Positions 1,015 to 52,555 of a stretch of DNA of 64,000 nt are shown piece by piece. Both the position numbers and the translations under genes were made by a program. This DNA comes from a virus, in the IMG/VR virus record IMGVR_UViG_3300037467_001950, one strand, 5' to 3'. Within the stretch, counting starts at the first letter, position 1. Each line of letters begins with the position of its first letter. The notes under the pieces are model-generated. The model saw nothing but the letters and a program-made list of their open reading frames with translations, searched no databases and was not told where the DNA came from.

Positions 1015-1218
1015 ATGGCGACAACGTACAAGGCGCGCGACAACGTTCGGCTGGCGCGCAGATGTAAGCGGTGCGGCAACTGGATCCACGCGCCCGCGTC
1101 GGTTCAGGTGATGCTGGGCCCGCGGTGTCGTGGCCATGAGCGCGCCGAGCGTGATCAGCGTCGGCGCGACGAGCAGTGGGCGCTCATCCCGGAGTCCGAG
1201 CTGCGCGCCGCGAGCTGA
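1015..1218 (+). CDS. small CxxC protein, DUF6011-like
   Basis: 67 aa. CKRCGNWIHAPASVQVMLGPRC fits the CxxCG...GPxC signature recalled for DUF6011. Confidence 0.5.
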   Translation: MATTYKARDNVRLARRCKRCGNWIHAPASVQVMLGPRCRGHERAERDQRRRDEQWALIPESELRAAS

Positions 1219-1327
1219 ATTGTCCGCGGTTTGTCCGACGTTGGCCGCAAAGCTGTCGAACAATCCGGTCGTCGGGTAGCGTCGCTGGTGGTTGCCTTCC
1301 TCGGGCAGGCGGGGCGACCAAACGCCG

Positions 1328-1652
1328 GAATCGCCCGTCTTTCAACGTCTTTCGGTTAGAGGACCGAGTTGGAAGGCGGGCGGTTTCGTGTATTCTAGAC
1401 GCCGTCGCTGCCTCCGATCTCCTGAGTAGCGGCCGAGTTGGAAGTCAAGTCAGGTGAATCACCCGCCCGCCCATAGCTTTTCGGGTTGCAGCCCGAGTGG
1501 GAAGGCGGGTGATTTGCGTGTAACGTACTCCCGTCACTTCCCTCCTCCATGAGAAGCGGCTGAGGTATCCGAAGGTCAGCAAAAATCGCCCGCCTATCCA
1601 CAGCTTTTCGGCTGGCACCGAGTGGACAGGCGGGTGATTTGCGTATCGGGCG
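1328..1652 (+). repeat. three tandem ~127-bp repeats, each with a ~60-70 nt imperfect hairpin
   Basis: Units start at about 1328, 1456 and 1583. The outer arms AATC(A/G)CCCGCC / GGCGGGTGATT are conserved, as are the inner CTTTTCGG / CCGAGTGG and the trailing TTTGCGTGTA. Several pairs are G-T, so they pair only as plus-strand RNA. Confidence 0.75.
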
Positions 1653-1669
1653 TCTGTAGAGTCCCCGCG

Positions 1670-1810
1670 GTGACCTGTGATGTGTGTGACCAGCCTGCCG
1701 ACGTGGCGATCGTCCAGCCCGGCGACGACACCAGCCCCGGGCCGTCCGCCCTGTGTGCCTACCACCTGGCCCTGTTCGCCGTGCAGCTGCTCGCAGGGCG
1801 CCGCGACTGA
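1670..1810 (+). CDS. small Cys-rich protein (46 aa), uncertain
   Basis: GTG 1670. It reads VTCDVCDQPADVAIVQPGDD...ALCAYHLALF, lies just upstream of the recombinase, and has a weak RBS. Confidence 0.3.
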   Translation: MTCDVCDQPADVAIVQPGDDTSPGPSALCAYHLALFAVQLLAGRRD

Positions 1811-1844
1811 CTCCTACGCCAATCTGTCGGTGCGCCAGGGCAAA

Positions 1845-2870
1845 ATGGGCCGAATGGGCGAACAGATAGATGTCGTCGCGTCGTTTTCCGGTGGTGGTGA
1901 ACTGGATCGGCTCGCGCAGCTCGACGAGCTGGCTGCCGAGCTGCGTCGCACAGCGCGCCCGGCCAACACCCGCCGCACCTACGCCGCGGCCTGGAACCTG
2001 TGGCGCGAATACTGCGGACAGATGGGGATTTCGCCGACAGCGAACACCGAGGGCGCGCTCATCGGGTTCGTCGGCTGGTACTCCCAGCGCCGGGTCCGGC
2101 CCGACACGATCCGCAACCGGCTCGCCGGCATCTACGTCCATCTGCGCGAAGACGACGCCGAGCCGACCACGCTGGTGAAGCAGCACGTCGCCGAGGCCGT
2201 GGCCCGGCTGGAGACCGAGCAGGTGCAGCGCGGGGAACTGGCGCCGCCGCGTCGGGCCCCGATCCTGGCCGACGGGCACCTGGAGGCCATGATGGCCGCC
2301 CAGCCCGACACTCTGCGCGGTCTGCGCGATACCGCGGTGCTGGCCATGTGGTTCGGGCTGGCGCGGCGTCGCAGCGAACTGGCGACCCGGCTGGATGCCC
2401 GGCAGATGCCGATCGGGCTGATGGTGCCCGACATCCAGGTCACCGAACGCGGCATGACCGTGGCCATCCGTGTGATCAAGGGCGGCCGCGCCGGCACGGT
2501 GGCCGTCCCCCGGCAGGACAGCCCGCTCTGTCCGGTGGCGGCGTGGACGCGGTGGCAGCAGGCCGCGGCGATCACGACCGGGCCCGCGTTCCGCCGGCTG
2601 ACGTCGCGGTCGGACACGCTGACACCGCACGGGATCGGGGAGAAGACGATTCGGCAGATCATCGCCGACGCCGAGCGGCGTGCAGGGTTGAACGTCGGCT
2701 ACACCGGCCACTCCGGTCGGCGCACGTTCGTCACCCGTGCGGTGGATGCGGGTGCCTCGTTGGGTGAGATCACCCGGGTCACCCTGCACGCAGAAGGTTC
2801 GGCGACGGTGCACAAGTACTACGACGTGCGCGACGAGTGGACGCAGAACCCGCTCAACAAGATCGTCTAG
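1845..2870 (+). CDS. int: tyrosine recombinase / integrase (about 341 aa, no obvious arm-binding domain)
   Basis: The catalytic signature is present: ...LARRRSELA..., GHSGRRTFVT (HxxR) and LHAEGSATVHKYY (catalytic Tyr). The N-terminal core-binding-like region reads RRTYAAAWNLWREYC. Confidence 0.9.
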   Translation: MGRMGEQIDVVASFSGGGELDRLAQLDELAAELRRTARPANTRRTYAAAWNLWREYCGQMGISPTANTEGALIGFVGWYSQRRVRPDTIRNRLAGIYVHLREDDAEPTTLVKQHVAEAVARLETEQVQRGELAPPRRAPILADGHLEAMMAAQPDTLRGLRDTAVLAMWFGLARRRSELATRLDARQMPIGLMVPDIQVTERGMTVAIRVIKGGRAGTVAVPRQDSPLCPVAAWTRWQQAAAITTGPAFRRLTSRSDTLTPHGIGEKTIRQIIADAERRAGLNVGYTGHSGRRTFVTRAVDAGASLGEITRVTLHAEGSATVHKYYDVRDEWTQNPLNKIV

Positions 2871-3157
2871 GCGCCCGGTTCGGGCGGTGGTTCGGGGGCG
2901 GTGCGCGGGAGGTTCACATCCCCCATTTCCAGACCGGCGGAGTAGACCGCGGCGACCAGATGTGCCAGCCGCGGCACCGGTACCCGGAGGGTGACGAACG
3001 GGTCATTGGTGGCGATGAACGCGGCGTCGACCACCGCTCCGAGCTTCATCTGAGCGTCTGCCCATTGCCGTAATTTCGCGGCATCGTCGCAGCTCACATC
3101 CACTGATGCCAGCACATGGGCGTAGCGGCGGACACCTGCACCGCCGCCCAGACTCAT
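2867..3157 (-). CDS. hypothetical protein, divergent from the XRE gene
   Basis: ATG (reverse) at 3157, 96 aa, high GC3. It is convergent with and overlaps the int stop. Confidence 0.45.
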   Translation of the reverse strand: MSLGGGAGVRRYAHVLASVDVSCDDAAKLRQWADAQMKLGAVVDAAFIATNDPFVTLRVPVPRLAHLVAAVYSAGLEMGDVNLPRTAPEPPPEPGA

Positions 3158-3264
3158 GCTGGACGGCACCGAAGGCAGTAGTTTAGGGTCCTGTCGTGTT
3201 GATGACGGATCAGTCATGTCAGTCATCATCTCCGAGGATTCCTCGTTTTGGAAGAAGGGCACGC

Positions 3265-3918
3265 ATGGAAACACATCAGATCATCCGCCACTACCGCGAT
3301 CTACGGGGGCTGACGATCAAGCAGCTCGCCAAGGAGGTCGGAGTCTCCGATCGGCAGATCGCCCGTTACGAAGACCCCGAGGACGGCGCGCAACCCTCAC
3401 TGCCGATCGCGTCCAAACTCGCTGCGACGCTCGACATTTCGCTGGCGACGTTGGCCGGTCACGGTGCGCCGACGGTCAACCTGTCCGGCGAGTGGTGGAC
3501 GGCGTGGCAGACGTGGATGAACGACGAGGAGCGGGTGGAGGTCGAATTCCTGCGCATCCACCAGGAGGGCAACTTCCTGTTGGTCACCGGTTCGCCCGAC
3601 CCGGCGCACGAGGCGACCGGAAGTTTCTCCTGGACCGGCGAACTGCGTCTGATCCGCGACCGGTGCCTGTCGGGCTGGTACGTGGCGACCACCGACGGTG
3701 TCGCCAGCAACGGCGCCATCCACCTCACCCTCGACCCGCAGGGCCATGTGGCCGTCGGGCGCTGGATGGGGTTGTCCCACGACGGAATCAACGAATGCGG
3801 GTGGGGTTCGATGGCTCGCGACCGTGAGACCGCTGAGGCGGCGCTCGAGGCGCTGCTCCCAATGTCGGGGACGCTCAAGGCCATTCCGGAGTTCGAAGTC
3901 AAAACCCCACGGTCGTAA
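3265..3918 (+). CDS. XRE-family HTH protein with a ~150-aa C-terminal domain
   Basis: ATG 3265. IIRHYRDLRGLTIKQLAKEVGVSDRQIARYE is a Cro/C1-type HTH. Confidence 0.8.
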   Translation: METHQIIRHYRDLRGLTIKQLAKEVGVSDRQIARYEDPEDGAQPSLPIASKLAATLDISLATLAGHGAPTVNLSGEWWTAWQTWMNDEERVEVEFLRIHQEGNFLLVTGSPDPAHEATGSFSWTGELRLIRDRCLSGWYVATTDGVASNGAIHLTLDPQGHVAVGRWMGLSHDGINECGWGSMARDRETAEAALEALLPMSGTLKAIPEFEVKTPRS

Positions 3919-3965
3919 CGGGTTCGCCGGAAATCTAGACAGCCCTCGCCGGTGCGGCTACAGTT

Positions 3966-3999
3966 CCTGTCATATTCATGACGTATCCGTCATGACAGG
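3966..3999. promoter_or_regulatory. AT-rich imperfect palindrome (operator- or terminator-like)
   Basis: CCTGTCAT-ATTC-ATGACG TATC CGTCATGACAGG, in the gap between the XRE gene and the next operon. Confidence 0.35.
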
Positions 4000-4076
4000 C
4001 TAAGGGACCTGGGAAGAGGCACCTGCAATGGCGAATTCTAGCCTGCCCCGGCTGATCTGCAGGATCGGGGCTTAAA

Positions 4077-4334
4077 ATGAACCAACCGACTCGTCGGATT
4101 CCCGGCGAAGCTGCTGTCCGCGAAGGGCTCACGCTCACGAACCAGCAGCATGAGCATCCCCCGGTCGACCTTCTCGAACGGGTGGTGGCGGGGTTGCGTG
4201 ACGCCCATTGCGTCCCCGGCCAGCGCCCTCGGTGCTGGAGTACTGCGTCCCCCAGCACCGAGGGCCGCGGGCCCTTGTCGCAGCGCATCCTCCCCCTGCA
4301 CGTGATCCGCGGCGTGAGGGGGTGTGCGGCGTGA
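4077..4334 (+). CDS. hypothetical protein
   Basis: ATG 4077 with mostly G/C third positions. Its stop overlaps the next GTG (GTGA at 4331-4334). Confidence 0.4.
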   Translation: MNQPTRRIPGEAAVREGLTLTNQQHEHPPVDLLERVVAGLRDAHCVPGQRPRCWSTASPSTEGRGPLSQRILPLHVIRGVRGCAA

Positions 4335-6388: not shown

Positions 6389-6841
6389 ATGGTGCGGAAG
6401 AACAGCACCGGCCGGGCCTCGATCAAGCGTGCGTTCCGTCAGGAGCAGGCGCTCAAGCTGCGGCTGGCCGGTGCCACCTATACGGCGATCGCCGAGAAGC
6501 TGGGTTGCAGCCGGACTGTGGCCTACCGCGACGTCGCCGACGCCCTGGCTGAACTGAAACGTGAACCGGCGCAAGCGGTTCTTGACATGGAGATGCATCG
6601 GCTCGATCAGATGCTTCTGGGTTTGTGGCGGGACGCGGTGTCGGGCAACACGAAAGCCGTGTCGGCCGCGTTGCGGATCATGGACCGCCGTGCCCGCTAC
6701 CTGGGTCTGGATCAGGCTCCCCCGCCTGATACCAGCCTGGAGGCGCGGGTGGCGCTGGATGAGCTGCAGAAGGCGATCGTGGAGGCCGCCGAGAAGATCA
6801 ACCCCGATCTGGGTTATGGGTCGGCGGGTGCGCTCGGATGA
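6389..6841 (+). CDS. terS: terminase small subunit (HTH)
   Basis: ATG 6389. HTH LAGATYTAIAEKLGCSRTVAYRDVADAL. It lies directly upstream of terL with an ATGA overlap. Confidence 0.65.
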   Translation: MVRKNSTGRASIKRAFRQEQALKLRLAGATYTAIAEKLGCSRTVAYRDVADALAELKREPAQAVLDMEMHRLDQMLLGLWRDAVSGNTKAVSAALRIMDRRARYLGLDQAPPPDTSLEARVALDELQKAIVEAAEKINPDLGYGSAGALG

Positions 6842-8121
6842 GTCAGCCGGGGTCGATTGCCACGACGCCGGCCGCGGGGATGTCACGCAAACAGATTTTG
6901 TCGTTCGCGCGGGCGACGGGGCGATGCAACATCTTCGAAGGCGCGGTGCGTTCCGGTAAGAGCTTCGCGTGGACGTGGCTGATGTTGACCAAGATCCGCG
7001 AAGCCGGCACCCTCGGCTCGATCGTGCTGGTCGGCCGCTCCCGACTTACCGTGTGGCGCAACGTGTTCGAACCCCTGGAGCAGAACCCGGCGTTCGGGAT
7101 GTTCCGGCCGTTCGTCGAATACAAGCAGGGTGCGCCGACGGCGACGATCTTCGGGCGCGCGGTGCACATCTTCGGCGCCGACGACGCCGCCTCCGAATCG
7201 TCGCTGCGCGGTATGACGGTGCAGTTGGCGTTCCTCGACGAGCTGACGGTGCTGCACAAGGACTTCTTCAAGCAGCTGCTTGCCCGTATGTCGGTGCCCG
7301 GGGCCCAGTTGTTCGCCACTACCAACCCCGACGGCCCGGCGCACTGGCTCAAGGCCGACTACCTCGACAAGCTCGACGAGCTGCCGGACTGGCGGCGATT
7401 CCACTTCGTCCTCGACGACAACCCGAGCCTGGATGAGGCGTATAAACGCAGCCTGCGCGCGGAGTACACCGGCCTGTGGTATCGCCGTTTCATTTTGGGC
7501 CTGTGGGTCGCGGCCGAAGGCGCGGTCTATGACTGCTGGGACGAAGATCAGCACGTCATCGCATGGAAAGACCTGCCCCGCATGGTCGACATCCTCGGCG
7601 TCGGCGTCGACTACGGCACCACCAACGCCACCGCCGCCCTCATGCTGGGCATCGGTGAAGACCACAAGCTGTACCTGATCGACGAGTGGCGCTACAACCC
7701 GCGTGACGACGCGGCCCGGTGGACGGATTCGAAGCTGGCCGAACAGCTCGGCGAGTGGATCAACAAACCGCATCTGCCCGACTCGCACGGCCACAAGCAC
7801 GGCTCCATCATCGTCGACCCCGCGGCCGCCTCGTTCCGGGTGCAGCTGCGTGAAGACGGCATCTACACCCACCCCGCCGAAAACGACGTGCTGTACGGAA
7901 TCCGTACCACGTCAAGCCTTTTGGCCGCCGGGAAGCTGCTGGTGACCGACCGGTGCAAAGGCTTCCTGACCGAGGTGACCGGCTACTCCTGGGACACCAA
8001 GGCCACCGAGAAGGGCTTGGACGCGCCGGTGAAGATCGCCGACCACAGCTTGGATGCCGCCCGTTACGTCATCGCCACCACCGAACGCCGGTGGCGGCGC
8101 ACCATCGACCTCGCCGCTTAG
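6838..8121 (+). CDS. terL: terminase large subunit
   Basis: 427 aa. The Walker A-like motif EGAVRSGKS, the AFLDE Walker B-like motif and a C-terminal nuclease region (DHSLDAARY) are present. Confidence 0.9.
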   Translation: MSQPGSIATTPAAGMSRKQILSFARATGRCNIFEGAVRSGKSFAWTWLMLTKIREAGTLGSIVLVGRSRLTVWRNVFEPLEQNPAFGMFRPFVEYKQGAPTATIFGRAVHIFGADDAASESSLRGMTVQLAFLDELTVLHKDFFKQLLARMSVPGAQLFATTNPDGPAHWLKADYLDKLDELPDWRRFHFVLDDNPSLDEAYKRSLRAEYTGLWYRRFILGLWVAAEGAVYDCWDEDQHVIAWKDLPRMVDILGVGVDYGTTNATAALMLGIGEDHKLYLIDEWRYNPRDDAARWTDSKLAEQLGEWINKPHLPDSHGHKHGSIIVDPAAASFRVQLREDGIYTHPAENDVLYGIRTTSSLLAAGKLLVTDRCKGFLTEVTGYSWDTKATEKGLDAPVKIADHSLDAARYVIATTERRWRRTIDLAA

Positions 8122-9759: not shown

Positions 9760-9923
9760 GCGGCAACTACGAGCTCACCGACTACCTCGAGGCCACCCGC
9801 GCACACCTCGACGTCATCCGCCACACCAACCCGAGCAACGAGTACGCGATCGAGCAGCTGTATCTGGCGACACGGGCGCTGTTCAACGCCGTGGAGATGA
9901 TGAACGGCAGTGGCGATGGGTAG
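9756..9923 (+). CDS. hypothetical protein (55 aa)
   Basis: GTG 9756 (GTGA overlap) with high GC3. It was not in the ORF track because it falls below the size cut-off. Confidence 0.4.
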   Translation: MSGNYELTDYLEATRAHLDVIRHTNPSNEYAIEQLYLATRALFNAVEMMNGSGDG

Positions 9924-11009: not shown

Positions 11010-11181
11010 GGACCGTGCTGCGTATCCGGTTCCGTGTGTCCCCGCGTACCCGCATGGCGCGGGCCCTGCTGCGGTGGGCGCTGCGGCTGGATCCGCATGT
11101 GGTCCCGGTCGCGCCGCCGGCGGTGGTGGGGCGCACGAGTTTGCAAGTTCCCTGGGTGCCGTGGGTGCCAGGGTCGGCCAA

Positions 11182-11254
11182 AGCGGAGTAGAGCAGTCGG
11201 TAGCTCGCTGGGCTCATAATCCAGAGGTCGTGGGTTCGACTCCCACCTCCGCTA
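11182..11254 (+). tRNA. tRNA-Met: tRNA-Met (anticodon CAT; could also be an Ile2 type)
   Basis: Hand-folded cloverleaf: acceptor AGCGGAG/CTCCGCT, D arm GAGC-AGTCGGTA-GCTC, anticodon arm CTGGG-CTCATAA-TCCAG, T arm GTGGG-TTCGACT-CCCAC, discriminator A. No CCA is encoded. Confidence 0.9.
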
Positions 11255-11269
11255 CAAACCTGTTGTGCG

Positions 11270-11281
11270 ACAACCGAATAC
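11270..11281 (+). promoter_or_regulatory. start-associated motif copy (ACAACCGAATAC)
   Basis: Immediately followed by the GAGGAG RBS and GTG 11294. Confidence 0.5.
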
Positions 11282-11293
11282 GAGGAGATTGCG

Positions 11294-11578
11294 GTGGCAG
11301 CCAAGAAGGGCATGGGCTCCGGTGGTGGCACCAAGTCCAACCGCACCGCCGGTGGCAACGTCTCGGCCGCAGCGCGGGCGAAGTCCGGATCCGGGAAAGA
11401 CAAGAAGTACCCGCTGCCGGACAAGAAGGCCGCCGTCTCCGCGATCAACCTGCGCAACAACAGCAACAGCATGTCCGGTGACGCCGTGCTCGACAAGGTC
11501 GCCCGCTCGAAGTTCGGCAAAGACCCCCAGGTCAAGGCCAAGATCGCCAAGGCTCGGCAGGCGGACAAGAAGAAGTGA
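11294..11578 (+). CDS. lysine-rich basic protein
   Basis: GTG 11294 follows AGGAGA. 94 aa rich in K, G and S. Confidence 0.55.
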   Translation: MAAKKGMGSGGGTKSNRTAGGNVSAAARAKSGSGKDKKYPLPDKKAAVSAINLRNNSNSMSGDAVLDKVARSKFGKDPQVKAKIAKARQADKKK

Positions 11579-11946
11579 CCCACCATCTGTGGCGCAACCA
11601 TCCCGCGGTGCGTACCGGCGAAGACCTGACCCGCGGTGAACGCGCCGCCGACCTGGCCGTCGCCGGGATGGGGTCGTGGGCGTTTCTGGGCATCCAGACC
11701 GCGATCATCGTCTGCTGGATCGTCGTCAACGTGTGCGCGGTGATACTGCGCTTCGACCCGTACCCGTTCATCCTGCTCAACCTGGCGTTCTCCACCCAGG
11801 CCGCCTACGCCGCGCCGCTGATCCTGCTGGCCCAGCGCCGCCAGGACACCAAGAACGCCGAGGTCGCACTGCACACCCTCGACAACACCACCACCATGCT
11901 GGCGACGCTGGCCAGCATCGAAGGCATCTTGCAGGACGCGATATGA
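11575..11946 (+). CDS. DUF1003 membrane protein
   Basis: GSWAFLGIQTAIIVCWIVVN...DPYPFILLNLAFSTQAAYAAPLILLAQRRQ matches the DUF1003 pattern. GTGA overlap with the upstream gene. Confidence 0.7.
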   Translation: MTHHLWRNHPAVRTGEDLTRGERAADLAVAGMGSWAFLGIQTAIIVCWIVVNVCAVILRFDPYPFILLNLAFSTQAAYAAPLILLAQRRQDTKNAEVALHTLDNTTTMLATLASIEGILQDAI

Positions 11947-12236
11947 GCCTGGCGCAGTGGTCGTGGGTCACCGCCGCCATCTCGATCGCCGGGGCGTGGT
12001 TTTCCTCCCGCTCCCCGCGACGCGGCTGGATGGCCGGAATAGTGGTGCAGCTGGTGTGGATCATCGCCGGCGTCGCCACCGGGCAGCCCGGCACCATCGC
12101 CCTGTCGATCGTGTTCATCGCCCTGGACTGCTACAGCCTGTGGCGTTGGCGCGGCACCGCCTTCACCCCGTCACACCGCCGCCACAACGGCCAACCCCAC
12201 ACCCCGCCCGTCATCGAGCAGGAGGTGGCGCCGTGA
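11943..12236 (+). CDS. small membrane protein (about 3 TM segments)
   Basis: ATG 11943 (ATGA overlap). Trp-rich hydrophobic sequence. Confidence 0.5.
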   Translation: MSLAQWSWVTAAISIAGAWFSSRSPRRGWMAGIVVQLVWIIAGVATGQPGTIALSIVFIALDCYSLWRWRGTAFTPSHRRHNGQPHTPPVIEQEVAP

Positions 12237-12760
12237 AACCCCGCCACGCCGACACCGACCGCATGAACCGGTTGCGCGCCGGGGTGCTGGGCGCCAACGA
12301 CGGCATCGTGTCGGTGTCGGCGCTGATCATCGGCGTGGCCGCCGCCCACACCGGCCGGTCGGTGCTGCTGACCACCGGACTGGCGGGGCTGATGGCGGGC
12401 GCGGTGTCGATGGCGCTGGGCGAATACGTGTCGGTGGCCACCCAACGCGACGCCGAAGCACCCATGGTCGCCGACGGGCGCATGTTCGCCGACGAGGTGG
12501 CCAACCCGTGGACTGCGGCCGCGTCCTCGGCGGTGTCGTTCACCGCCGGCGCGCTGGTGCCGTTGATCGCGATGTTGATCAGCCCCGTCTCCTGGCGGGT
12601 CCCGGTCACCGTCGCCGCCGTCATCGCCGCCCTGATCGCCACCGGCGCCACCGCGGCCCGGCTCGGCGACACCCCCGCGCTTCGGCCCGTGGTGCGCACC
12701 GTGTGCGGCGGCGCGGCCGCGATGGCCATCACCTACCTCGTCGGCTACCTGACGAACTGA
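12233..12760 (+). CDS. VIT1/CCC1-family (iron/manganese transporter-like) membrane protein
   Basis: GVLGANDGIVSVSALIIGV and MALGEYVSVATQRD are VIT-family signature segments. GTGA overlap with the upstream gene. Confidence 0.7.
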   Translation: MKPRHADTDRMNRLRAGVLGANDGIVSVSALIIGVAAAHTGRSVLLTTGLAGLMAGAVSMALGEYVSVATQRDAEAPMVADGRMFADEVANPWTAAASSAVSFTAGALVPLIAMLISPVSWRVPVTVAAVIAALIATGATAARLGDTPALRPVVRTVCGGAAAMAITYLVGYLTN

Positions 12761-23564: not shown

Positions 23565-23678
23565 TTCGGGTCTCCCCCGTTGAAGAAATGGCTCTCGTGT
23601 GGTGGCCGAACGGCCACCGACAAAGTGTAGAACCTCCCGCACCCGATCCATAGCCCTCGGCTCTGAATCGGGTGCGTC

Positions 23679-23690
23679 ACAACTGAATAC
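23679..23690 (+). promoter_or_regulatory. start-associated motif copy (ACAACTGAATAC)
   Basis: Lies upstream of the tape measure GTG 23707. Confidence 0.5.
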
Positions 23691-23706
23691 AGGGGCGGTG
23701 AGAACC

Positions 23707-26700
23707 GTGGCAGCTGACTACAGCGCCTACGACGCCGGAACGGCGTATCTCACCATCGAAGCTCGTCTCGACGACGACTTCGAGGCCAAGATCGCTGGTG
23801 CGCTGCAAGGCATCCCAGCCCAGCAGATCGCGGTCACCCCCGACATGGACGGGTTCACCAAAGACCTCGACGACAGCTGGAAAAGCCTCGACCACACCCT
23901 CAGCGTGAAGGTGCAGGCCGACCAGGACGCCCTCGCCGAGTTGGCCAAGCCGATCGAGCTGGTGGCCACCCTCGACACCACCGCCGCGCAGGCCGAACTC
24001 GACCGGTTCCGCGCCGAACTGCCCACGATCACCCTCTACGCCGCCCTCGACACCGCGGGCGCCGAGGCCGATCTGCAGCGGTTGCGCGACGACGCGGCCG
24101 CCGAGCCGGTGACCGTGCGCACCGACACCGACCAGGCGCAAGGTCAGGTCACGCTCGACACCAAGCCCGCCGAGCAGACGCTATCGGAATTCTTTGCACA
24201 AGAGCTGGTTTTCACTGTCCCGCTGGCTTTGGACACCTCCATCGCCGAGGAGCAACTAGCCGAGTTCCGGGCCAAGGCCGCCGAGCCGGTGACGATGAAA
24301 ATCAACGTCACCGAGTCCGGCGGGGGCACCCGGGGCGGCGGCCGGCGCCGCAAGGCCAGCGCCGCCGAAGACGGCCTCGAGGAGCCCACCTACTACCACC
24401 GCGAGCCGGTGGACCTCGACGCCTACATGGCCAGCCGTTCGGCCGCCCAAACCGATCAGGCCCAGGCGGCGCAGCGCATCCTCTACGGCGCCGCGGAGCA
24501 GAATCCGCAGCTGGCCGCCCAAGAGATCATGGGCGCGGCCAGCCAGACCACGCCGCAGGTGGCGCGTCAGATCGTGTCCGGCGCGCAGATGCACGGCGGC
24601 CCGTGGCCGGCGCCGAGTGCGTTCGGGCAGACCGAACGCCCCACCGACTGGTCGCGCTGGAACTTCGGGGAAAACACCGAGCCCGCGTCCATGCCCGGCG
24701 AGGGCCTGGCCAACCTCACCAAGTTCCTGCAGTCGATCGAGAAGGGCGGCATCGGCGGCGGCGCAAAGGGACTGCCGTCGCTGGTCGGCAGCAAGGATTG
24801 GGCAGGGCTGCTGTCCGACGCCGGCATGATGGGCGGCCCCGAAGCCGGGGCCGCGGTGGCGGCGCTGGGTGCGCTCAAGGGTGTGCTGTCGGACCTGGTG
24901 GGCCCGATCACCGACGCGATCAGCGTGCTGACCGAGGTCACGACCGCGTTCATGAAGTTCTCCCTCATGGGCGGGGGCCTGTCGCTGGGCGGTGCCCTGC
25001 TCGGCGATCTGGGTGCGATCGGCATCACCGGCGCGTTCGGGTTGAAGAACGTTCCGGCAGCGCTGCAGGCGGGGACAGCGCTGCGGGAATGGAACCGCGA
25101 CCCCAACGCCCAGTTGCAGCAGCAGTCGGCGGTGCTGTCGGCGCAGATGGGTGTGCGCACCGCCAACGAGGGTGTGCAGTCTTCGATCTGGAACCAAGGC
25201 GATGCCCTGTTCCAGGCCAAGGCGGCCACCGAGCAGTTGACCATGGCCCAGGAATCGGCCGTGCTGAGTCAGCGATCGCTGAACGACGCCTACAAAGAGG
25301 CTGGTCGCAGCGTCCGCGACATGAACGACGCCCTGGAAGACGCCAAGCTCAAGCAGGAGGGCGCGGCGCTGTCGGTGTCGGCGGCCCGGACCCGGTTGCT
25401 GCAAACACAGATGGATCCGTCGGCGTCGCTGCTGGACAAGCAGCTGGCGTTGCACGAATACAACGTCGCCCAGCAGGGCTACAAGGAGTCCAAGAACAAA
25501 ACCGCCGACCAGACTGTCGACACCGCGATCTCCAATCAGCGTGGGGTGCAACAGAATACGCAGGTTTTGCAGGCTGTGCGCGGGATGCAGTCGGCGACGC
25601 TGGGGGTGGAGGAAGCCGCCCACGCCCAGGTCGACGCCCAGCACCAGATCGTGCAAGCCACCTGGGGAATCGAGAACTCCCTCACGCAGGTGGCGTTGGC
25701 GGCCAACCAGATGAAGATCGCGCTCAACCCGGAGCCGGTGGATCAGTATCACCTTGCGCTGGACAAGCTTTCGCCTTCGGCGCGGGACTTCGTCGAGCAG
25801 ATGCAGGCGATGTACCCGGAGTTGAAGAAGGTCCAGAACGCGATCAGCGATCAGCTGTTCGACCACCTGGCCGATTCGATCCGCAAGTTCCTCAACGACC
25901 AGGGCATCTCCATCACCTCGGCCATGACCGGGATCGCGCACGCCATCAACGGCGGGCTGAAAGACACCCTGCAAGGGCTCGACGACCTGTTCACCAAGCT
26001 GCAGCGTGACGGCACCTGGGACAAGTTCGTCACCGGCGCGGAGAACCTGGCAAAGGGCATGGCCCCCATCATCACCGGGCTGACCGATTTGTTCATCCAG
26101 CTCGGCGCGAAAACGTCCGGCTCCGTCGGCCCGCTGATGACCCAGATCGGGCAGAGCCTGCAAACGCTGGCCCCGGCCCTGGGTGATCTGGCGAACGCGT
26201 TCGCCAAGGGGCTCACCGACGCCCTACCCAGCCTGACGACGATGATCCAGAAGCTCGCCGAGGCCGCGGTGCCGGTGATGCCCGAAATCTCGCACCTGTT
26301 CCAGGTTTTCGCCAACATCCTCTCCGACATCGGCCCCGACCTGGGTCAGATGGTGGGGGCGCTGCTCTCGGACGTGGCCTCGTTCCTGGAGGGCCTGGAG
26401 AAGTCGGGCGGGCTCAAGCAGCTCGTCGACCAGATGCGCGACATGTTCCACCAGATCGGCCCGCTGATGGGCCCTTTGGGCGAGATGGTCGGGCACCTGC
26501 TGCCGGCGCTGTTCGACGTCATCACCCTCGGGATTCCGTGGCTGATGAAGATGGCCCCGGAGTTCGAGAAGTGGTTCCACGAGGCGCAACCGCTGGTGGA
26601 GGCGGCCGGGCACCTGGCCGACCTGCTGCCCGCCATCATGGGCGCGATCGACGATCTGTCTCACCCGTTGCAGTCGATCACCGACCTGTTCAGCGACTGG

Positions 26701-29133
26701 ACCGGCTGGGTGGAACGGATCGTCGATGGGCTCGGGAAGATCGCCGACCACATGGGCAACCTGGGCGGCATCCTCGGCGGCTCCAGTGGCGACAACTCCG
26801 GCGGCGGCGGGTGGGGTTCGAAGATCGGGAAGTTCTTCAACCCGCTCAGCTTCGTACCCACCCGCGCCCAGGGCGGCCCCATCGCCGGAGAAGGGTCCTC
26901 GATATCGGACTCGATTCCGGCGATGCTGTCCGACGGCGAGTACGTGATCAACGCCCGCGCCGCGGCCGCCCACCGGCCGCTGCTGGACGCGATCAACGGC
27001 TACGCGTTGGGCGGGATCGTCAAGGGCGTCGCCTACGCCAACGACATCCGCGGCGGCCACTTCGGGCGCCTGTTCCGGCGCGTGGTCGAGCACAACGTGC
27101 TCCACTTCGCCTCCGGCGGCCCCGTCAACGCCCGCGACTGGGGTGCCGGCCACCCGAACATCCCCTACATCGAGGGCGGCACCGCCGCCGACGGTGTGGA
27201 CTGCTCCGGCTATGTGGGTCTGCTGCAGCAGATTTCGATGGGTGTGGCCAATCCGACCGCGCGCCTGGGTGTGACCGGGGACGTGGTCGGCGGGACGTGG
27301 CCGCAGTTCGTGAGCGGCGCCGACCCGAGCGATGCGTTCATCATCGGCGCCAACGCCGAGCACATGGCCGCGGCGATCCTGGGCACCAACTTCGAGGCCC
27401 GCCAGCCCGGTGAGAACGTGCGCATCGGCGGCAACGCCGCCTCCCCGTTCGATGGCCAGTTCACTACGGTCGGCCACGTCGACCCGAACGCGTTCCAGCC
27501 CGCCTACGACGCCACCGGCAACTCCGGTGGGCAGGATCCGTCCACCGCGGGCGGGGACACCGACGCGTTGGCGAACGAAACGATGCTGCCGCAGAAGGCG
27601 CCCACCCGGTTCTCCGAGTGGGCGGGCAACACCACCACCAACGTCATCACCTCCCTGCTGAACTACGGCACACCGACCCCGCCCATGGACGGGTCGGTGG
27701 TGCCGATGCAGGGGTTCCAGGACGCGTTCGACGCGATCATCAAGACCGCGCCGAGCAAGCGGCAGCACGACCAGGCCGCCACGTTCCTGCTGGGTGTGCC
27801 GTTGCCGGACCAGAACGCGCCCGGCGCGGGAACGCCGAGCGCGACACCGCCGGCGCCCAACGCCGATGCCTCCACCGGAGGATCGGCGGGGGTGTCGACA
27901 CCCGACAATCCGGACGCGGGCACCAAGGACGCCCCCGACATGCTGGGCACCGACAAGCTGGCCGGCGGTGAGGGTGTCGGTGGTGTGCTCGGCGCCCTCG
28001 AGGTCGGGGCCGGTGGGTTCGCCAAGGCCGCAGGCGAGTTCGTGTCCGGTCAGATCAGTTCCGCGCTCAACGTGCTGGGTGGCGGGTCGGAGCTGGACAC
28101 GGTGCCGGGGTGGATGCAGGCCGCCTACCAGGTGTGGGCGGCGGAGCAGACCAAACCGAAGGACAGCAAGAAGCGCGACACGGTCATCGGGAAGGACTAC
28201 AACGCGCCGAAGGCCTCGACGTCGGGTTCGACGCCTGGGTCGATTCCGAGGGTCGGTGGTGGGACGCCGTCGATTCCGCGGACCGCGAACACGCCGTCGC
28301 GGACCAACCCGGACCGGGGCAGCCCGAACGAGTTGAACGAGATGGCCACCGACAACTCCGGCGCCAGCAGCTCTGGTGGCGGGGACCAGCTCAACAAGAT
28401 GGCCGGGCAGGGCACCGCGGCCGGTGGGCTGCCGCCGCTGATCACCTACACCCCCGGCGGTGGTGTGTCGCAGTGGACTTCGACGTTCGCGGCGGTGCTG
28501 TCGTCGCTGGGGATGCCCTCGTCGTGGCTGTCGCTGGGCATGGCGCAAATGGAGACCGAGGACGCCAGCGGTGATCCGTACGCGATCAACAACTGGGACT
28601 CCAACGCCGCCAAGGGAACCCCGTCCAAGGGTCTGATGCAGGTCATCGACCCGACGTTCAACTCGATGTACCCGAAGTTCTCCTCCCTGGGCTACCCGGC
28701 CAACATCTACGACCCGCGGTCGAATATCGCCGCGGGCCTGGAGTGGGAGGTCTACAAGCGCGGCACGCCGGTCGGTGACTGGGGCCAAGGTCACGGCTAT
28801 GCCACCGGCGGTGACGTGTCCGGGGATGGGTCCTCGATCGGGGACGTGATTCCGGCGTTGCTGTCGGACGGGGAGTTCGTGGTCAACGCCCGCTCCGCTG
28901 ACGCCAACCGCTCGCTGCTGCACGCGATCAACGCTGACGCGGGCGCGGTGTCTCGGCTGGCGCTCAAGCAGATGATCCCGACCAAGGGATTGGTGGGAGT
29001 CGGTGCCGGGCGTGGCGGGGTCGACCAGTCGGCGACCTACAACATCCACGCTCACGACGTGGAGCAGGGCTTCCGCAAGGCGGCGCTGTACCACCAGCAG
29101 CGCGCGGCGACCTACACCAGCCGTTGGCGCTGA
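23707..29133 (+). CDS. tape measure protein with embedded NlpC/P60-like and lytic transglycosylase-like motifs
   Basis: 1808 aa. GVDCSGYVGLLQQ lies at about 27190-27230. MAQMETEDASGDPYAINNWDSNAAKGTPSKGLMQVIDPTF lies at about 28530-28660. An internal duplicated segment GSSI.D.IPA.LSDGE.V.NA..A...R.LL.AIN lies at about 26890-27000 and 28830-28935. Confidence 0.9.
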   Translation: MAADYSAYDAGTAYLTIEARLDDDFEAKIAGALQGIPAQQIAVTPDMDGFTKDLDDSWKSLDHTLSVKVQADQDALAELAKPIELVATLDTTAAQAELDRFRAELPTITLYAALDTAGAEADLQRLRDDAAAEPVTVRTDTDQAQGQVTLDTKPAEQTLSEFFAQELVFTVPLALDTSIAEEQLAEFRAKAAEPVTMKINVTESGGGTRGGGRRRKASAAEDGLEEPTYYHREPVDLDAYMASRSAAQTDQAQAAQRILYGAAEQNPQLAAQEIMGAASQTTPQVARQIVSGAQMHGGPWPAPSAFGQTERPTDWSRWNFGENTEPASMPGEGLANLTKFLQSIEKGGIGGGAKGLPSLVGSKDWAGLLSDAGMMGGPEAGAAVAALGALKGVLSDLVGPITDAISVLTEVTTAFMKFSLMGGGLSLGGALLGDLGAIGITGAFGLKNVPAALQAGTALREWNRDPNAQLQQQSAVLSAQMGVRTANEGVQSSIWNQGDALFQAKAATEQLTMAQESAVLSQRSLNDAYKEAGRSVRDMNDALEDAKLKQEGAALSVSAARTRLLQTQMDPSASLLDKQLALHEYNVAQQGYKESKNKTADQTVDTAISNQRGVQQNTQVLQAVRGMQSATLGVEEAAHAQVDAQHQIVQATWGIENSLTQVALAANQMKIALNPEPVDQYHLALDKLSPSARDFVEQMQAMYPELKKVQNAISDQLFDHLADSIRKFLNDQGISITSAMTGIAHAINGGLKDTLQGLDDLFTKLQRDGTWDKFVTGAENLAKGMAPIITGLTDLFIQLGAKTSGSVGPLMTQIGQSLQTLAPALGDLANAFAKGLTDALPSLTTMIQKLAEAAVPVMPEISHLFQVFANILSDIGPDLGQMVGALLSDVASFLEGLEKSGGLKQLVDQMRDMFHQIGPLMGPLGEMVGHLLPALFDVITLGIPWLMKMAPEFEKWFHEAQPLVEAAGHLADLLPAIMGAIDDLSHPLQSITDLFSDWTGWVERIVDGLGKIADHMGNLGGILGGSSGDNSGGGGWGSKIGKFFNPLSFVPTRAQGGPIAGEGSSISDSIPAMLSDGEYVINARAAAAHRPLLDAINGYALGGIVKGVAYANDIRGGHFGRLFRRVVEHNVLHFASGGPVNARDWGAGHPNIPYIEGGTAADGVDCSGYVGLLQQISMGVANPTARLGVTGDVVGGTWPQFVSGADPSDAFIIGANAEHMAAAILGTNFEARQPGENVRIGGNAASPFDGQFTTVGHVDPNAFQPAYDATGNSGGQDPSTAGGDTDALANETMLPQKAPTRFSEWAGNTTTNVITSLLNYGTPTPPMDGSVVPMQGFQDAFDAIIKTAPSKRQHDQAATFLLGVPLPDQNAPGAGTPSATPPAPNADASTGGSAGVSTPDNPDAGTKDAPDMLGTDKLAGGEGVGGVLGALEVGAGGFAKAAGEFVSGQISSALNVLGGGSELDTVPGWMQAAYQVWAAEQTKPKDSKKRDTVIGKDYNAPKASTSGSTPGSIPRVGGGTPSIPRTANTPSRTNPDRGSPNELNEMATDNSGASSSGGGDQLNKMAGQGTAAGGLPPLITYTPGGGVSQWTSTFAAVLSSLGMPSSWLSLGMAQMETEDASGDPYAINNWDSNAAKGTPSKGLMQVIDPTFNSMYPKFSSLGYPANIYDPRSNIAAGLEWEVYKRGTPVGDWGQGHGYATGGDVSGDGSSIGDVIPALLSDGEFVVNARSADANRSLLHAINADAGAVSRLALKQMIPTKGLVGVGAGRGGVDQSATYNIHAHDVEQGFRKAALYHQQRAATYTSRWR

Positions 29134-38457: not shown

Positions 38458-39393
38458 ATGACGCTGCTGACCGGGGCCACCCTGCTCAACCCGCTGGCCG
38501 ATCTCGCCTCCCCCGCACTGACCGGAACACCGACCGCACCCACAGCCACCTCCGGCACCAACACCACCCAGTTGGCGACCACGGCGTTCGTGACCAGCAC
38601 CTACGCCCCGCTGGCCTCGCCCACCCTGACCGGCACCCCAGCCGCGCCCACGGCCGCCTCCGGGACCAACACCACCCAGATCGCGACCACGGCGTTCGTG
38701 CAGACCGCGGTGACGGTGGGCGGCGGGACGGCCGCCATGCAGGGCTCGAAAACCTCCGCCTACACCGCGGCCGCCGGGGACTTCGTGCCCGTGTCGGCAT
38801 CCGGTGGCGCGGTGACCATCACCCTGCCCACAGCACCGGCGGGTGGCACCCGCGTCACAGTGATGAAAACCGACACTTCCACCAACGCGGTCACCATCTC
38901 CCGTGGCGGCACCACCGACGTGATCAACGTCGCCGCGCAGACCAGCCTCACCCTGCCCAACTACCTGTCGGTGGCGACGCTGGAATACGCCTCAGCCGCG
39001 GGCATCTGGTACAACCAAGAGTCTTCCGCGCCAGCGCATTTCACGTGGCTGGTGCAGAGCGGGGCCCGCGCCAGCGGCTACGGCGACATGCCCGAGGGCA
39101 TTTACATTCCGCAGGCGCTCGAGCTGCTGGCCGTCCAGTTCCGCATCGGGACCGCCGACGCGTCGGGCACCAGCGCCGCCCAGATTTACACCAACACCAC
39201 CAACGCCTCCACAGGGTCGGCGTTGGCCAGCGCGAACGTGGCCTCCGCTGCCTGGAACGTCGCCAACACGAAAACGCTGGTGACGGGCCCGTGGGTCATC
39301 GCTGCGGGCACCTACCTGCAGTGCAACGTGACCGCGGTCGGCACCACGCCGGGCAAACGGCTGTCCGTCGACTTCGTGGGGGTGTGGCTGTAG
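38458..39393 (+). CDS. tail fibre protein
   Basis: Tandem SP(A/T)LTGTP(T/A)APTA.SGTNTTQ(L/I)ATTAFV repeats, as seen in many tail fibre N-termini. Confidence 0.7.
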   Translation: MTLLTGATLLNPLADLASPALTGTPTAPTATSGTNTTQLATTAFVTSTYAPLASPTLTGTPAAPTAASGTNTTQIATTAFVQTAVTVGGGTAAMQGSKTSAYTAAAGDFVPVSASGGAVTITLPTAPAGGTRVTVMKTDTSTNAVTISRGGTTDVINVAAQTSLTLPNYLSVATLEYASAAGIWYNQESSAPAHFTWLVQSGARASGYGDMPEGIYIPQALELLAVQFRIGTADASGTSAAQIYTNTTNASTGSALASANVASAAWNVANTKTLVTGPWVIAAGTYLQCNVTAVGTTPGKRLSVDFVGVWL

Positions 39394-40149: not shown

Positions 40150-40463
40150 CGCTGTCGTTCCTCCCACTGGGTGAATATCGCGAGGCTACGGGGGCTCATC
40201 GGGACAGCCCTGATGATTTCCCACTGGTCGCAGCCGGGTTCTTTCTCGTGTAGCACCACCACCAGCGGCCGTCCTTCGTTCGTGCGGCCCCAGACGGTGA
40301 GGACTTCGGGTCCGTGTGGAGTGCGTGCGTATCGCTCCCAGTGTGCGGCGTACAGCACTTCCACTACTTCACTTCGTGTGACGTTGGCGCGGACGAGAAG
40401 CGATTCTGCGCCGATCCACCATTCGTATTCCACCGGAGCGAAGGTACTACACCGGTATTTCAT
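40146..40463 (-). CDS. BrnT/DUF497-like toxin candidate
   Basis: 105 aa. YEWW...VTRSEVVEVL...ER...VWGRTNEGRPLVVVL...WEIIRAVPMSP follows the BrnT order of conserved blocks. The toxin-first gene order is as in brnTA. Confidence 0.5.
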   Translation of the reverse strand: MKYRCSTFAPVEYEWWIGAESLLVRANVTRSEVVEVLYAAHWERYARTPHGPEVLTVWGRTNEGRPLVVVLHEKEPGCDQWEIIRAVPMSPRSLAIFTQWEERQR

Positions 40464-40505
40464 TGTCTCTTTTGGATGCTACACCAATCTGTGGGGGGAA
40501 GACGC

Positions 40506-41282
40506 ATGATCACCGTTCTCACAGTGCGCGGCACCGGTGAAATTCAGGGGTCCACGGGCAATATGCTCACCGCGGTCACCGCCGCCCTCGACCCGGCCTG
40601 CTACACCACCGGCCCCCAGTACGACATCTCCTATCCGGCCAGCGTCGGCCCCGCCAACCCCAACCACAGTCTCGGCGGCCCCAGTGAGCTGACCTCCGTC
40701 GGTGAGGGGCTGGCCAACCTCGTGGCCACGATGCGCGCCCTGCGCGGGCCGATCGCGATACTGGGCTACAGCCTCGGCGCGCTCGTGGTGACCGCCTTCC
40801 GGGAGTCGCAGGCCCAAGGCCAGTACTCCGACTGCCCGATCGCGTGGTCGGCGTGCGTGGCCAACCCGCGCCGGCGGGCCGGGGACTCCATCGACCCCAA
40901 CCCGTATGGGTACGGGATCACCGGGCAGGCCGGACCGTTCACCGACGTCCCGCATCTGGAGGCCGCCAACCCCGCCGACGCCATCACCTCCTGCAACCCG
41001 GACTCCCCGCTGCGCGGGCTGGCCGACGGGATGGCCGCGTTCTCCTTCGCCTGCCTGGGCGGGTGGAGCGAAACGCTGGTGGCCGACCTGCTGGCCAAGC
41101 GGGTGCAGCCGTTCTCTCTCGGCTATTGGCGCAACCCGGTGCGCACGTGGCAGCTCTACGACGAAGCCGCCCGAAACGTCATCGGGTACGTGTCGAACAC
41201 AACCCATGTGGCGCAATACGTTTCGGGCGGCTTCTGTCAGCGGTTGGCGGAGCGGATCAACTCTTCGTCCGTTCAGGCTTGA
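40506..41282 (+). CDS. lysB: lysin B (cutinase-like mycolylarabinogalactan esterase)
   Basis: ATG 40506. LTVRGTGE at the N-terminus and the serine-esterase motif GYSLGA. Confidence 0.8.
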   Translation: MITVLTVRGTGEIQGSTGNMLTAVTAALDPACYTTGPQYDISYPASVGPANPNHSLGGPSELTSVGEGLANLVATMRALRGPIAILGYSLGALVVTAFRESQAQGQYSDCPIAWSACVANPRRRAGDSIDPNPYGYGITGQAGPFTDVPHLEAANPADAITSCNPDSPLRGLADGMAAFSFACLGGWSETLVADLLAKRVQPFSLGYWRNPVRTWQLYDEAARNVIGYVSNTTHVAQYVSGGFCQRLAERINSSSVQA

Positions 41283-42921: not shown

Positions 42922-43461
42922 CTAGAACGGCGGTTCGTCGCCGGGGCCCGCGCCGAAGTTGCCGGGCCCGGACGGGCCCGACCCCCACGGATCGTCGCTG
43001 GCGCTGTAGCCGCCTCCGCCTCCGCCATAGCCGCCGCGCTGGCCGCCGCTGCTACGCTGCTCCTGGCCGCCACCGCGGCCACCACCGCCGCCCTCGCGGG
43101 CGACCTTGTTCAGCTTGGCCGTGGCATACCGCAAGGAAGGCCCGATCTCATCGACTTCCAGCTCCACGACAGTGCGCTTCTCGCCTTCCTTGGTTTCGTA
43201 GGAGCGCTGCTTCAAACGGCCGGACACGATGACTCGCGACCCGCGGACCAGCGATTCGGCGACGTTCTCGGCCGCCTCACGCCAAATGTTGCAGCGCAGG
43301 AACAGCGCCTCCCCGTCCTTCCACTCGTTGCTGGTACGGTCGAACACGCGCGGGGTGGAGGCGACGGTGAAGTTCGCCACCGCCGCCCCGGTCGGGGTGA
43401 AACGCAGCTCAGGATCGGCCGTCAGGTTGCCGATGACCGTGATTACGGTGTCGCCTGCCAT
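42922..43461 (-). CDS. ssb: single-stranded DNA-binding protein
   Basis: [35 protein letters not shown]... OB fold, a Gly-rich tail and the acidic tip DEPPF. Confidence 0.92.
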
Positions 43462-43490
43462 GATGGTTGTCAGTCTTCTTTCTGCCCAAG

Positions 43491-44369
43491 TCAGGGCGCG
43501 ATTTCGAAGTGGCGTTGTGTCCATTCCTCTTTCGGGCGCTGGATGCGGTGCAACCGGCCGCCGCGACGCCATGCGTTCCAGGCCTGGATGTAGAAGCCCA
43601 TCGTGTCGCGGTCCGAGAGCCGTTCGCGGGTGCGCTGCGACTTGGCGAAGCGCTCACGCAGCGCCAGGATCGGCGACCCCGGTTCCAGGTTGGCGCCGGT
43701 GCACATGAAGTCGAAGAACTCCTCGGCCGCGCGCTGATCTTTGCGGGCGAACTGGATCAGCATCGCGCCGCTGATCTTGGGTTGGGCGCCGATCTTGCGG
43801 ATGCCGGAGTGATAGTTGTTGGCCAAGTCCATCTCCGCGCGATGCTCAGCCACCCACTGCTCGACAGCGGTGTTCGACATCTGGGAGTTGCGGATCGCTT
43901 TCCAGATGTGGCCTTCGTCGATGGCGTGGCAGGTGCGCGCGACCGAGGCGAGGTACATGCCGTTCTTGTAGCCCTGCATGTCGAGCTGCTGCCCGGCCTG
44001 ACGGCGGCGGCCCTGGTCCATCGCGGCCTGGGAGGCGGGGTCCATGCCACGGATCACCAGTACCTCGATGATCACTTCTTCTTTGTCGCCGAGCGTGCCG
44101 GCCAGTGCCTCGAGCCGGTGCTGTCCGTCGATGAGGTGGCCGTACCAGTCGAACTTGATCGCCTCGGCGGTGAACGTCCAGCGGCCGCCGCGCATGTCGG
44201 CGCGGTAGGTGTTGACCGTGGTTTCCGTCGTGGACCGGTTGCGGACCTGCGTGGACAGCCATTCGATCGCGATTTCGGCGTTGATGACCGTGCGCTCTTG
44301 GGAGTAGGGGATCTTCTCGGCGTCGGCGACGTCGTCGGGGATCTCCACGATCTGGGTGCGGATTGCCAT
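43491..44369 (-). CDS. ParB/Srx-like nuclease-domain protein
   Basis: 292 aa. [14 protein letters not shown] is the ParB N-terminal-domain-like catalytic box. Confidence 0.75.
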
Positions 44370-45997: not shown

Positions 45998-46020
45998 CGT
46001 CGTCTCCTTCCAACAGGGGT

Positions 46021-52548: not shown

Positions 52549-52555
52549 TGTCGGC

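Follow-up and report, generated by a model that had tools for sequence, protein, structure and literature searches.

Three tandem hairpins beside a Cre-like recombinase gene of a predicted phage-plasmid as possible small transcription modules

The 64,000-nucleotide virus record IMGVR_UViG_3300037467_001950 (IMG/VR), analysed here over its full length and called the window, contains three tandem repeats, each with an imperfect hairpin, upstream of the gene for a compact tyrosine recombinase. In our leading explanation, which is tentative and to which we give a little less than an even chance, the repeats are paralogous small plus-strand transcription modules or tandem terminators, and the recombinase has as its target not the hairpins but a dif/lox-like palindrome that accompanies the genes of its relatives.

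The three hairpins, each of about 60 nt, lie on the plus strand at 1327–1387 (unit 1), 1455–1516 (unit 2) and 1582–1641 (unit 3), with start-to-start distances of 128 and 127 bp, and the array begins 109 nt past the stop codon of the upstream gene (1015–1218). All three are followed by UUU, and unit 3 is also preceded by an A5 run. A repeat search recovered the direct repeat families together with inverted arms at 1457–1473/1498–1514 and 1583–1601/1622–1640, and a covariance model built on the hairpin copies scored units 1 to 3 at 72, 82 and 71 bits on the plus strand versus 28, 34 and 34 bits on the minus strand. Both methods thus retrieve the three diverged repeats with a period of 127–128 bp that a preliminary description, made from the letters of this DNA alone, had reported; Tandem Repeats Finder does not detect the array, and the covariance model finds no further copy above 12 bits across the 64 kb. 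That the hairpin is the conserved part of each repeat, as had also been proposed, is borne out by identities between units of 66–94% for the hairpins versus 48–63% for the spacers, which are nearly unalignable except for the second against the third (S2 vs S3). The arm sequences quoted at the time need an amendment for unit 1, which departs from them (AATCGCCCGTC / GGCGGGCGGTT and CTTTCGG / CCGAGTTGG). The arms sit 35–37 bp apart, and the central loops vary between units. No Rfam family matched the locus, either at the gathering threshold or at E-values up to 10.

Only four close relatives of the recombinase were found among 5.8 billion protein clusters. In contig L001, whose recombinase is 89% identical, a single hairpin is followed by the same small open reading frame (ORF) as in the window and then by the recombinase gene, whereas L185 (the contig of run X2) lacks the small ORF and has two hairpins, of which the last ends 30 nt ahead of the recombinase ATG; the indel responsible for the missing ORF in L185 starts right at the 3' end of a hairpin. 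L003 and L005, with 68% and 62% recombinase identity, are free of hairpins and have minus-strand genes in that slot, so that the interval between the upstream gene and the recombinase gene holds different cargo in each relative. In L005, a tRNA-Thr(ggt)-like gene (9766–9842, minus strand) occupies the position of the hairpins. Hairpin copy number is therefore one in L001, two in L185, three in the window and zero in L003, L005 and the more distant relatives, and because it varies from zero to three, this comparison of contigs marks the hairpin element as dispensable for the recombinase. A search for the repeat in related genomes, which the preliminary description had suggested, found copies in L001 and L185 only, at the same locus. 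A sliding-window hairpin scan around homologous recombinase genes revealed no comparable conserved hairpin, and the covariance model gave no further copy, either elsewhere in the window or at any related locus.

The pairing analysis used the six distinct copies found in the window, L001 and L185, three genomes that are closely related. The consensus hairpin comprises 25 pairs with 95.3% of the cells paired, versus 33–55% in slid-partner controls; five pairs show compensatory changes, with nine cells altered on both sides, and none of 500 shuffles matched the observed paired percentage or covariation score. Among the non-canonical cells, 21 are G.U and two are C.A. Folded as plus-strand RNA, units 1 to 3 reach −43.4, −44.6 and −36.2 kcal/mol (z = −6.5, −7.3 and −5.6 against shuffles), and the plus strand folds better than the minus strand in five of the six copies, the exception being unit 3, which folds about equally well on the minus strand. 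Covariance model scores show the same asymmetry, with 71–82 bits on the plus and 23–34 bits on the minus strand. The earlier observation that G–T pairs make the helices better as plus-strand RNA thus stands. With DNA folding parameters, the plus strand is again favoured in all three copies of the window. Since all flanking genes have the plus strand as their sense strand, the simplest reading is that the element works as a folded plus strand in the form of RNA.

Ahead of each hairpin stands a −10-like hexamer on the plus strand: TAGCGT at 1277–1282, 46 nt upstream of hairpin 1 (TAGCTT in L185, TAGCAT in L001); TATTCT at 1391–1396, with TG before it, 60 nt ahead of hairpin 2 and conserved in L185; and TAACGT at 1521–1526, likewise following a TG, 57 nt ahead of hairpin 3. 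Two further −10-like hexamers precede the genes that follow, namely TAGAGT at 1657–1662 (TG before it, identical in L001), 7 nt ahead of the GTG at which the small ORF starts, and CAAAAT at 1841–1846, 7 nt before the recombinase ATG at 1854. TANNNT hexamers occur at 1.0 per kb window-wide and five times in 1219–1680, a ten-fold enrichment, the fifth copy lying inside hairpin 2. A TANNNT is found 46–60 nt ahead of every hairpin in the window, in L001 (9682) and in L185 (1398 and 1513), and the hexamer of the single L001 unit comes directly after the upstream stop codon. In the hairpin-free L003 and L005, the −10-like sequences GACACT and GATACT stand 8 nt before the recombinase ATG. We infer a promoter role for the TANNNT hexamers, and since TAGAGT lies only 7 nt before the GTG, the mRNA of the small ORF would be leaderless, as would that of the recombinase.

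The small ORF itself (1670–1810, plus strand) encodes 46 amino acids with a CxxC...CxxH pattern. Because it differs from its L001 counterpart by ten synonymous and only one non-synonymous codon, it is, by its substitution pattern, a real gene under strong purifying selection, although it is missing from the close variant L185. A motif TGTCGG(T/C)G at 1825–1832, which precedes the −10-like hexamer of the recombinase gene by 10 nt, is kept in the window, L001, L003, L005 and L185 and may serve as an operator or as an autoregulatory half-site.

Taken as transcription modules, the repeats would each consist of a −10-like G/TG-TANNNT element, a poorly conserved leader of 46–60 nt, a conserved imperfect hairpin of about 60 nt and UUU (UUUU in one copy). 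The long rightward operon would end at 1218 and be followed by one to three such modules, each transcribed to an RNA of about 100–115 nt whose hairpin serves as an intrinsic-type terminator. The hairpin stack would block read-through from the upstream operon as well as from the transcripts of the modules themselves, and the leaderless small ORF and the recombinase gene, which abut a variable immunity region, would be expressed solely from their own promoters. A parallel is offered by intrinsic terminators and terminator-bounded phage small RNAs: they share with the window units a GC-rich hairpin plus U residues, located where an operon ends and ahead of genes with promoters of their own, and each unit has a −10-like element upstream. 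One reading in the preliminary description, a family of small structured RNAs, fits all of these data and remains live.

Several findings weigh against this explanation. The window stem is twice the usual length for an intrinsic terminator, has conserved internal loops and is triplicated; with 22–25 bp, interrupted by internal loops, the stems are also far longer than the other terminator-like hairpins of this phage. The U tract is 3 nt only, and a consensus scan requiring at least five T in eight positions calls no terminator here, nor does it call a sigma-70 promoter. Among RNA runs, none that contains the region was found. Covariation was counted on copies from closely related genomes, so these counts are not independent, and the preference of the DNA parameters for the plus strand is compatible with a role of folded single-stranded DNA. 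Moreover, the outer arms and the GCUUUUCGG / CCGAGUGG core are conserved more strongly than a pure terminator requires. Finally, concerning the target of the recombinase, no CGATAA-N6-TTATCG palindrome (the core shared by the relatives) is present anywhere in the 64 kb.

The excess conservation of arms and internal loops over what pairing needs points to a second explanation, which we regard as unlikely but worth keeping: the modules may be genes of a trans-acting small RNA, either a regulator or a protein decoy, in which the hairpin would be the functional part and termination a by-product. With three paralogues, its dosage would be higher or its targets more diverse, for instance in lysogeny control or plasmid maintenance. 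The hexamer kept before each hairpin, including that of the single L001 unit, is expected in this case too; of the four leaders folded, three are predicted to form a small, CU-rich 5' hairpin, and the array adjoins the immunity region. However, a search of the 64 kb for antisense targets gave nothing above shuffles, the leader is as poorly kept as the spacers to which it belongs (48–63% identity), Rfam holds no matching family and the element is missing from L003 and L005.

The recombinase gene (1854–2870, plus strand) yields 338 amino acids from the ATG at 1854, which is the more likely start and that of the protein on record, or 341 from the ATG at 1845; the compact ORF of about 341 codons noted before is thus real, with a start that probably lies slightly further downstream. 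All catalytic residues align and are conserved, namely R161, K212, H289, R292, H316 (W in relatives) and Y325; in an alignment of 77 sequences, K212, R292 and Y325 do not vary, and at least 90% conservation is seen at R161 and H289. The single sequence matches PF00589 with 25.4 bits, just below the 27.1 cut-off. A profile of the 77 sequences searched against PDB finds Cre with E = 5e-36 over residues 34–322, XerC/D with 1e-22 to 5e-21 and the integron integrase IntI4 with 2e-12. An AlphaFold2 (AF2) model with a predicted local distance difference test (pLDDT) score of 93 returns Cre or the Cre-derived Tre as all of the top 31 Foldseek hits, with template modelling (TM) scores of 0.73/0.77; the TM scores of IntI4 are below those of Cre, and the model has no extra N-terminal arm-binding domain. 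Profile and predicted structure agree that the enzyme is a two-domain, Cre-like recombinase and not a lambda-type integrase, in line with the earlier suggestion of a Cre/Xer-like recombinase of a plasmid-prophage. Its family is large, with 4985 cluster representatives at E-values up to 1e-3, and includes homologues in the Streptomyces plasmid-phage ZL12 (34% identity) and in 71 Streptomyces plasmids, as well as a 36% identical homologue in a prophage inside a Streptosporangium chromosome, where it lies internally with phage genes 10 kb to either side. The recombinase most likely resolves multimers or circularises the genome.

An inverted-repeat scan of the relatives revealed perfect palindromes of 13–16 bp around a 6-bp asymmetric spacer in L001 (707–742, GCTTGTGTTCCGATAA-CTGTCC-TTATCGGAACACAAGC), L003 (506–541), L005 (1793–1828) and the Streptosporangium prophages L138–L140 (L138:7487–7522). 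Across the relatives, this dif/lox-like palindrome has the core CGATAA-N6-TTATCG, arms of 10–16 bp and a 6-bp asymmetric spacer, and additional copies are located in L142 (9808, 190 bp upstream of the recombinase gene), L147 (7018), L160 (2463), L172 (583), L181 (11774) and L182 (3879). It accompanies Cre-like genes in L001, L003, L005, L138–L143, L147, L160, L172, phage ZL12 and plasmid CP109187, at a distance of 0–200 bp upstream of the gene in L142, L147, L172, ZL12 and CP109187 and of 0.9–9.5 kb in others, the three closest included. The ZL12 and CP109187 sites, which read CGATAA-GCTCAC-ATATCG, precede the gene by 0–45 bp; the version in CP109285 is looser. When IMG/VR was scanned blindly with TYCCGATAA-N6-TTATCGGRA, 36 loci matched, five of them with a G+C content of at least 0.56, and three of these five (L147, L160 and L172) have a Cre-like gene 40–900 bp away; most of the low-GC matches resemble A/T-flanked terminators.

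The palindrome also resembles known Xer sites. It shares the 11-6-11 architecture of dif, cer and psi, and its arms CCGATAA / TTATCGG match the XerC arm of the proposed actinobacterial dif, that of Frankia being CACGCCGATAA-TGCACA-TTATGTCAAGT, whose XerC arm matches the palindrome core (PMC3025954). Unlike in those systems, both arms are of the XerC type, which makes the site symmetric; the enzyme is encoded by a phage and resembles Cre more strongly than XerC/D; and no accessory sequences were identified. Every close relative with enough upstream DNA (L001, L003 and L005) has the palindrome. Near the recombinase gene of the window, no lox-like inverted repeat was found; because positions 1–8400 of L001, which include its palindrome, are without counterpart in the window, we predict that the palindrome of the window genome lies about 7.5 kb to the left of the window start. 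On this comparative evidence the palindrome is probably the target site of the recombinase family, and the hairpins are probably not the target of this recombinase.

It is improbable that the adjacent recombinase uses the repeats as its DNA recombination site or as accessory sites, as the preliminary description had considered. The array does adjoin the gene in the window, L001 and L185, the hairpins do contain inverted repeats, and by eye the inner arm TTTTCGG resembles the palindrome arm TTATCGG. Yet the compensatory changes and the G.U bias indicate folding of a single strand and not duplex half-sites, the spacing of the arms is unlike any Cre- or Xer-type core and the loops between them differ from unit to unit. 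L003 and L005, in addition, retain recombinase and palindrome without hairpins, and in L001, the canonical palindrome (11–16/6/11–16 bp) coexists with a hairpin.

If the folded strand were DNA, the hairpins could be an attC-like substrate at a cargo hot spot or a single-strand origin for lagging-strand priming, a proposal that we rate as very improbable. Integron attC hairpins span 57–141 nt. Like them, the window hairpins are imperfect, would work as one folded strand, form an array next to a tyrosine recombinase and combine conserved outer boxes with a variable but paired middle; the plus-strand preference under DNA parameters, the asymmetric internal loop, the L185 indel that begins at a hairpin 3' end and the other cargo in the slot of L003 and L005 fit as well. 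On the other hand, the window recombinase is not IntI-like, given the gap between the IntI4 and Cre E-values and the lower Foldseek TM scores, no R/L box motifs are visible, the intervals between hairpins that would be the cassettes contain no ORF, and L003 and L005 carry cargo without hairpins. An RNA role fits equally well, because the strand that folds is also the sense strand of the genes on either side, and no evidence of rolling-circle replication was found, the sole replication gene identified being a PHROG-annotated initiator. The more specific idea that hairpin-bounded units, including the small ORF, are captured and lost in attC-like fashion by a non-IntI recombinase at a cargo hot spot is more doubtful still.

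We attach hardly any probability to the region being an attP with structured arm sites through which the phage integrates at a host attB, another of the earlier readings. It would account for the array next to a tyrosine recombinase gene, for the tRNA-Thr-like gene at the same place in L005 and for the homologue in the Streptosporangium chromosome. However, the predicted model lacks an arm-binding domain, 1150–1900 contains no tRNA or tmRNA fragment that could form a core, the Streptosporangium recombinase is internal to its prophage and not at the border, and the window has Rep and parABS. Nor did the hairpin motif occur intact among the genome, viral and metagenome scan matches. A strict two-arm pattern gave one match in JGI metagenomes and two in IMG/VR, all without the 5' arm and hence no true copy, and a 3'-arm pattern run on GTDB genomes had at least 120 matches, and all those listed lacked the 5' arm; a large share of these are tRNA genes by eye and the rest look like chance, so that no host match to the hairpin was seen among the matches listed. 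The by-eye resemblance of the hairpin 3' arm to a tRNA D-arm and anticodon stem is a product of the search pattern itself. Equally remote is the reading of the repeats as replication iterons or as a host-wide repetitive extragenic palindromic (REP) or miniature inverted-repeat transposable element (MITE) unrelated to phage biology. The units are regularly spaced, and since the genome scan had at least 120 matches, host copies beyond those listed are conceivable. The iteron version is made unlikely by the rep gene, which at 45.4 kb, about 43–44 kb from the array, contains a repeat-bearing, AT-rich stretch that is ori-like, and dispersed copies were seen neither among the genome matches listed nor in IMG/VR, JGI metagenomes, the remaining window or related loci.

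The window is phage DNA throughout. It derives from a soil metagenome, close variants were found in rhizosphere and compost metagenomes, and none of the isolated phages is close at the nucleotide level. Immediately before the array, the long rightward operon closes with a gene for 67 amino acids (1015–1218, plus strand) that has a weak DUF6011 match and a syntenic counterpart in L001, L003 and L005; a homologue search with this protein returned the query alone. Phage functions are represented by a large terminase gene (6838–8121), by a long ORF (23599–29133) that might encode the tape measure judging from size and position alone, and by a gene for a LysB-like esterase (40314–41282) with a PE-PPE domain match at Pfam's cut-off. 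The LysB-like gene hints at a host with a mycolic-acid envelope (Mycobacteriales) and not at Streptomyces. Further genes are those for SSB (42922–43572), a Sak4-like protein (46933–47859) and a PHROG-annotated replication initiator (Rep; 44942–46135, minus strand), whose ORF includes an ori-like stretch with an AT-rich run (45380–45410) followed by CGATACCCTATCG repeats and a palindrome (45440–45488).

Partition genes follow on the plus strand. A ParA-type ATPase (50475–51224) matches PF13614, PF01656 and PF09140, and the adjoining ORF (51224–52366) encodes a ParB helix-turn-helix (HTH) protein with a PF17762 match and its HTH domain at residues 229–304. The 17-bp palindrome TGGTAACANTGTTACCA occurs 11 times, versus 0.03 copies expected by chance, in two clusters (51385–51557 and 52201–52688) that we take as parS; since the first cluster sits within the ParB HTH ORF, the true parB start is probably downstream of it. 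The window thus has a Walker-type ParA, an HTH-bearing ParB and clustered centromere repeats, as the earlier mention of parABS had it. Terminase, Rep initiator, SSB and ParAB-parS stand together in one window without host DNA. Because ParA, ParB, 11 parS palindromes and a Rep initiator are all present, the gene content of this metagenome contig identifies the element as a likely phage-plasmid, that is, a plasmid-type prophage, a reading that the preliminary description had offered as one of several.

In general layout the element resembles phage P1, a temperate phage kept as a plasmid, in that both have a Rep initiator, ParA/ParB/parS and a two-domain Cre-type recombinase whose gene lies a few kb from the terminase genes. 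Cre is also the best structural and profile match of the window recombinase over the full length. Differences are that the two proteins are only 16–18% identical, that the candidate site has a 6-bp spacer and Xer/dif-like arms instead of the 13-8-13 arrangement of loxP, and that in the clade of the window this site is 8–9.5 kb from the gene and outside the window. We know of no comparable hairpin array in P1.

Among isolated elements with a homologue, pZL12/phiZL12 (GQ919031) is the closest, its 34% identical protein being annotated as integrase/recombinase; the dif-like CGATAA-GCTCAC-ATATCG just upstream of the gene is a further likeness. It is a distant relative, however, with no nucleotide similarity and no hairpin module found there, and its host differs if the LysB-like gene is a guide, the window host being of mycolic-acid type rather than Streptomyces. 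Both pZL12, with a 90-kb genome, and pSLE1 encode ParA and ParB (PMC4487206). The preliminary description had regarded an integration and a partition cassette in one genome as exceptional; both are indeed present in the window, but the combination is not unprecedented, as pZL12 and pSLE1 have ParAB together with annotated integrase genes. The cluster A mycobacteriophages RedRock and Miko are maintained outside the chromosome with parABS, and in some cluster A phages a leftward RepA lies next to parABS, as in the window; there, according to the passages on these phages, which mention no recombinase, parABS stands at the integrase locus in place of the integrase (Wetzel et al, 2020; PMC7157519). 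In the window, by contrast, the Cre-like recombinase coexists with parABS and is encoded at a different locus.

The P1/pZL12-style layout of Rep, parABS and a Cre-like recombinase is thereby extended to an uncultured lineage of soil actinophages with contigs of about 98 kb. Since pZL12 and pSLE1 carry recombinase homologues as well as ParA/ParB, the rule of either integrase or parABS, as the cluster A passages present it (PMC7157519), is not general and does not apply to such elements. A by-product is the candidate target CGATAA-N6-TTATCG for a large and mostly unannotated Cre-like family of actinobacterial phages and plasmids; if this holds true, orthogonal pairs of recombinase and site could become newly available for high-GC hosts. 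As a candidate structured RNA, the hairpin module is uncharacterised and very narrowly distributed, and it matters only if it regulates lysogeny or recombinase expression. Overall the element is of an ordinary kind, with one uncharacterised family of hairpin RNAs, and the dif-like site is the more useful lead.

Some minor features complete the window. A 108-bp tandem repeat (1.8 copies, 85% matches) in the late region at 38506–38700 likely lies within a coding gene. An orthologue of Ro60/TROVE with a vWA domain is encoded at 59513–61174 (plus strand), and just upstream of it are two candidates for YrlA-like Y RNAs that have a tRNA-like module, one at 59303–59431 (38 bits, E = 1e-5, below the gathering score) and one at 58925–58998 (25 bits). 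The Ro60 gene had raised the question of whether the hairpins themselves are Y RNAs (YrlA); this identity was rejected, as no YrlA match was obtained in 1150–1900 and the YrlA-like RNAs adjoin Ro60.

The immunity region next to the recombinase gene differs between the window, where 2870–4000 encodes a 240-amino-acid HTH_3 protein on the plus strand, and L001, where 11023–12390 encodes a 401-amino-acid HTH protein on the minus strand; the flanks of the region are about 85–98% alike between the two, which suggests heteroimmune variants. At the start of the first gene past the immunity region stands a 13-bp inverted repeat, CTCGGTGCTGGAG-TACTGCGTC-CCCCAGCACCGAG (4228–4262), which is also found at L001:12615, L003:13471 and L005:12619 and could be an operator or a regulatory hairpin.

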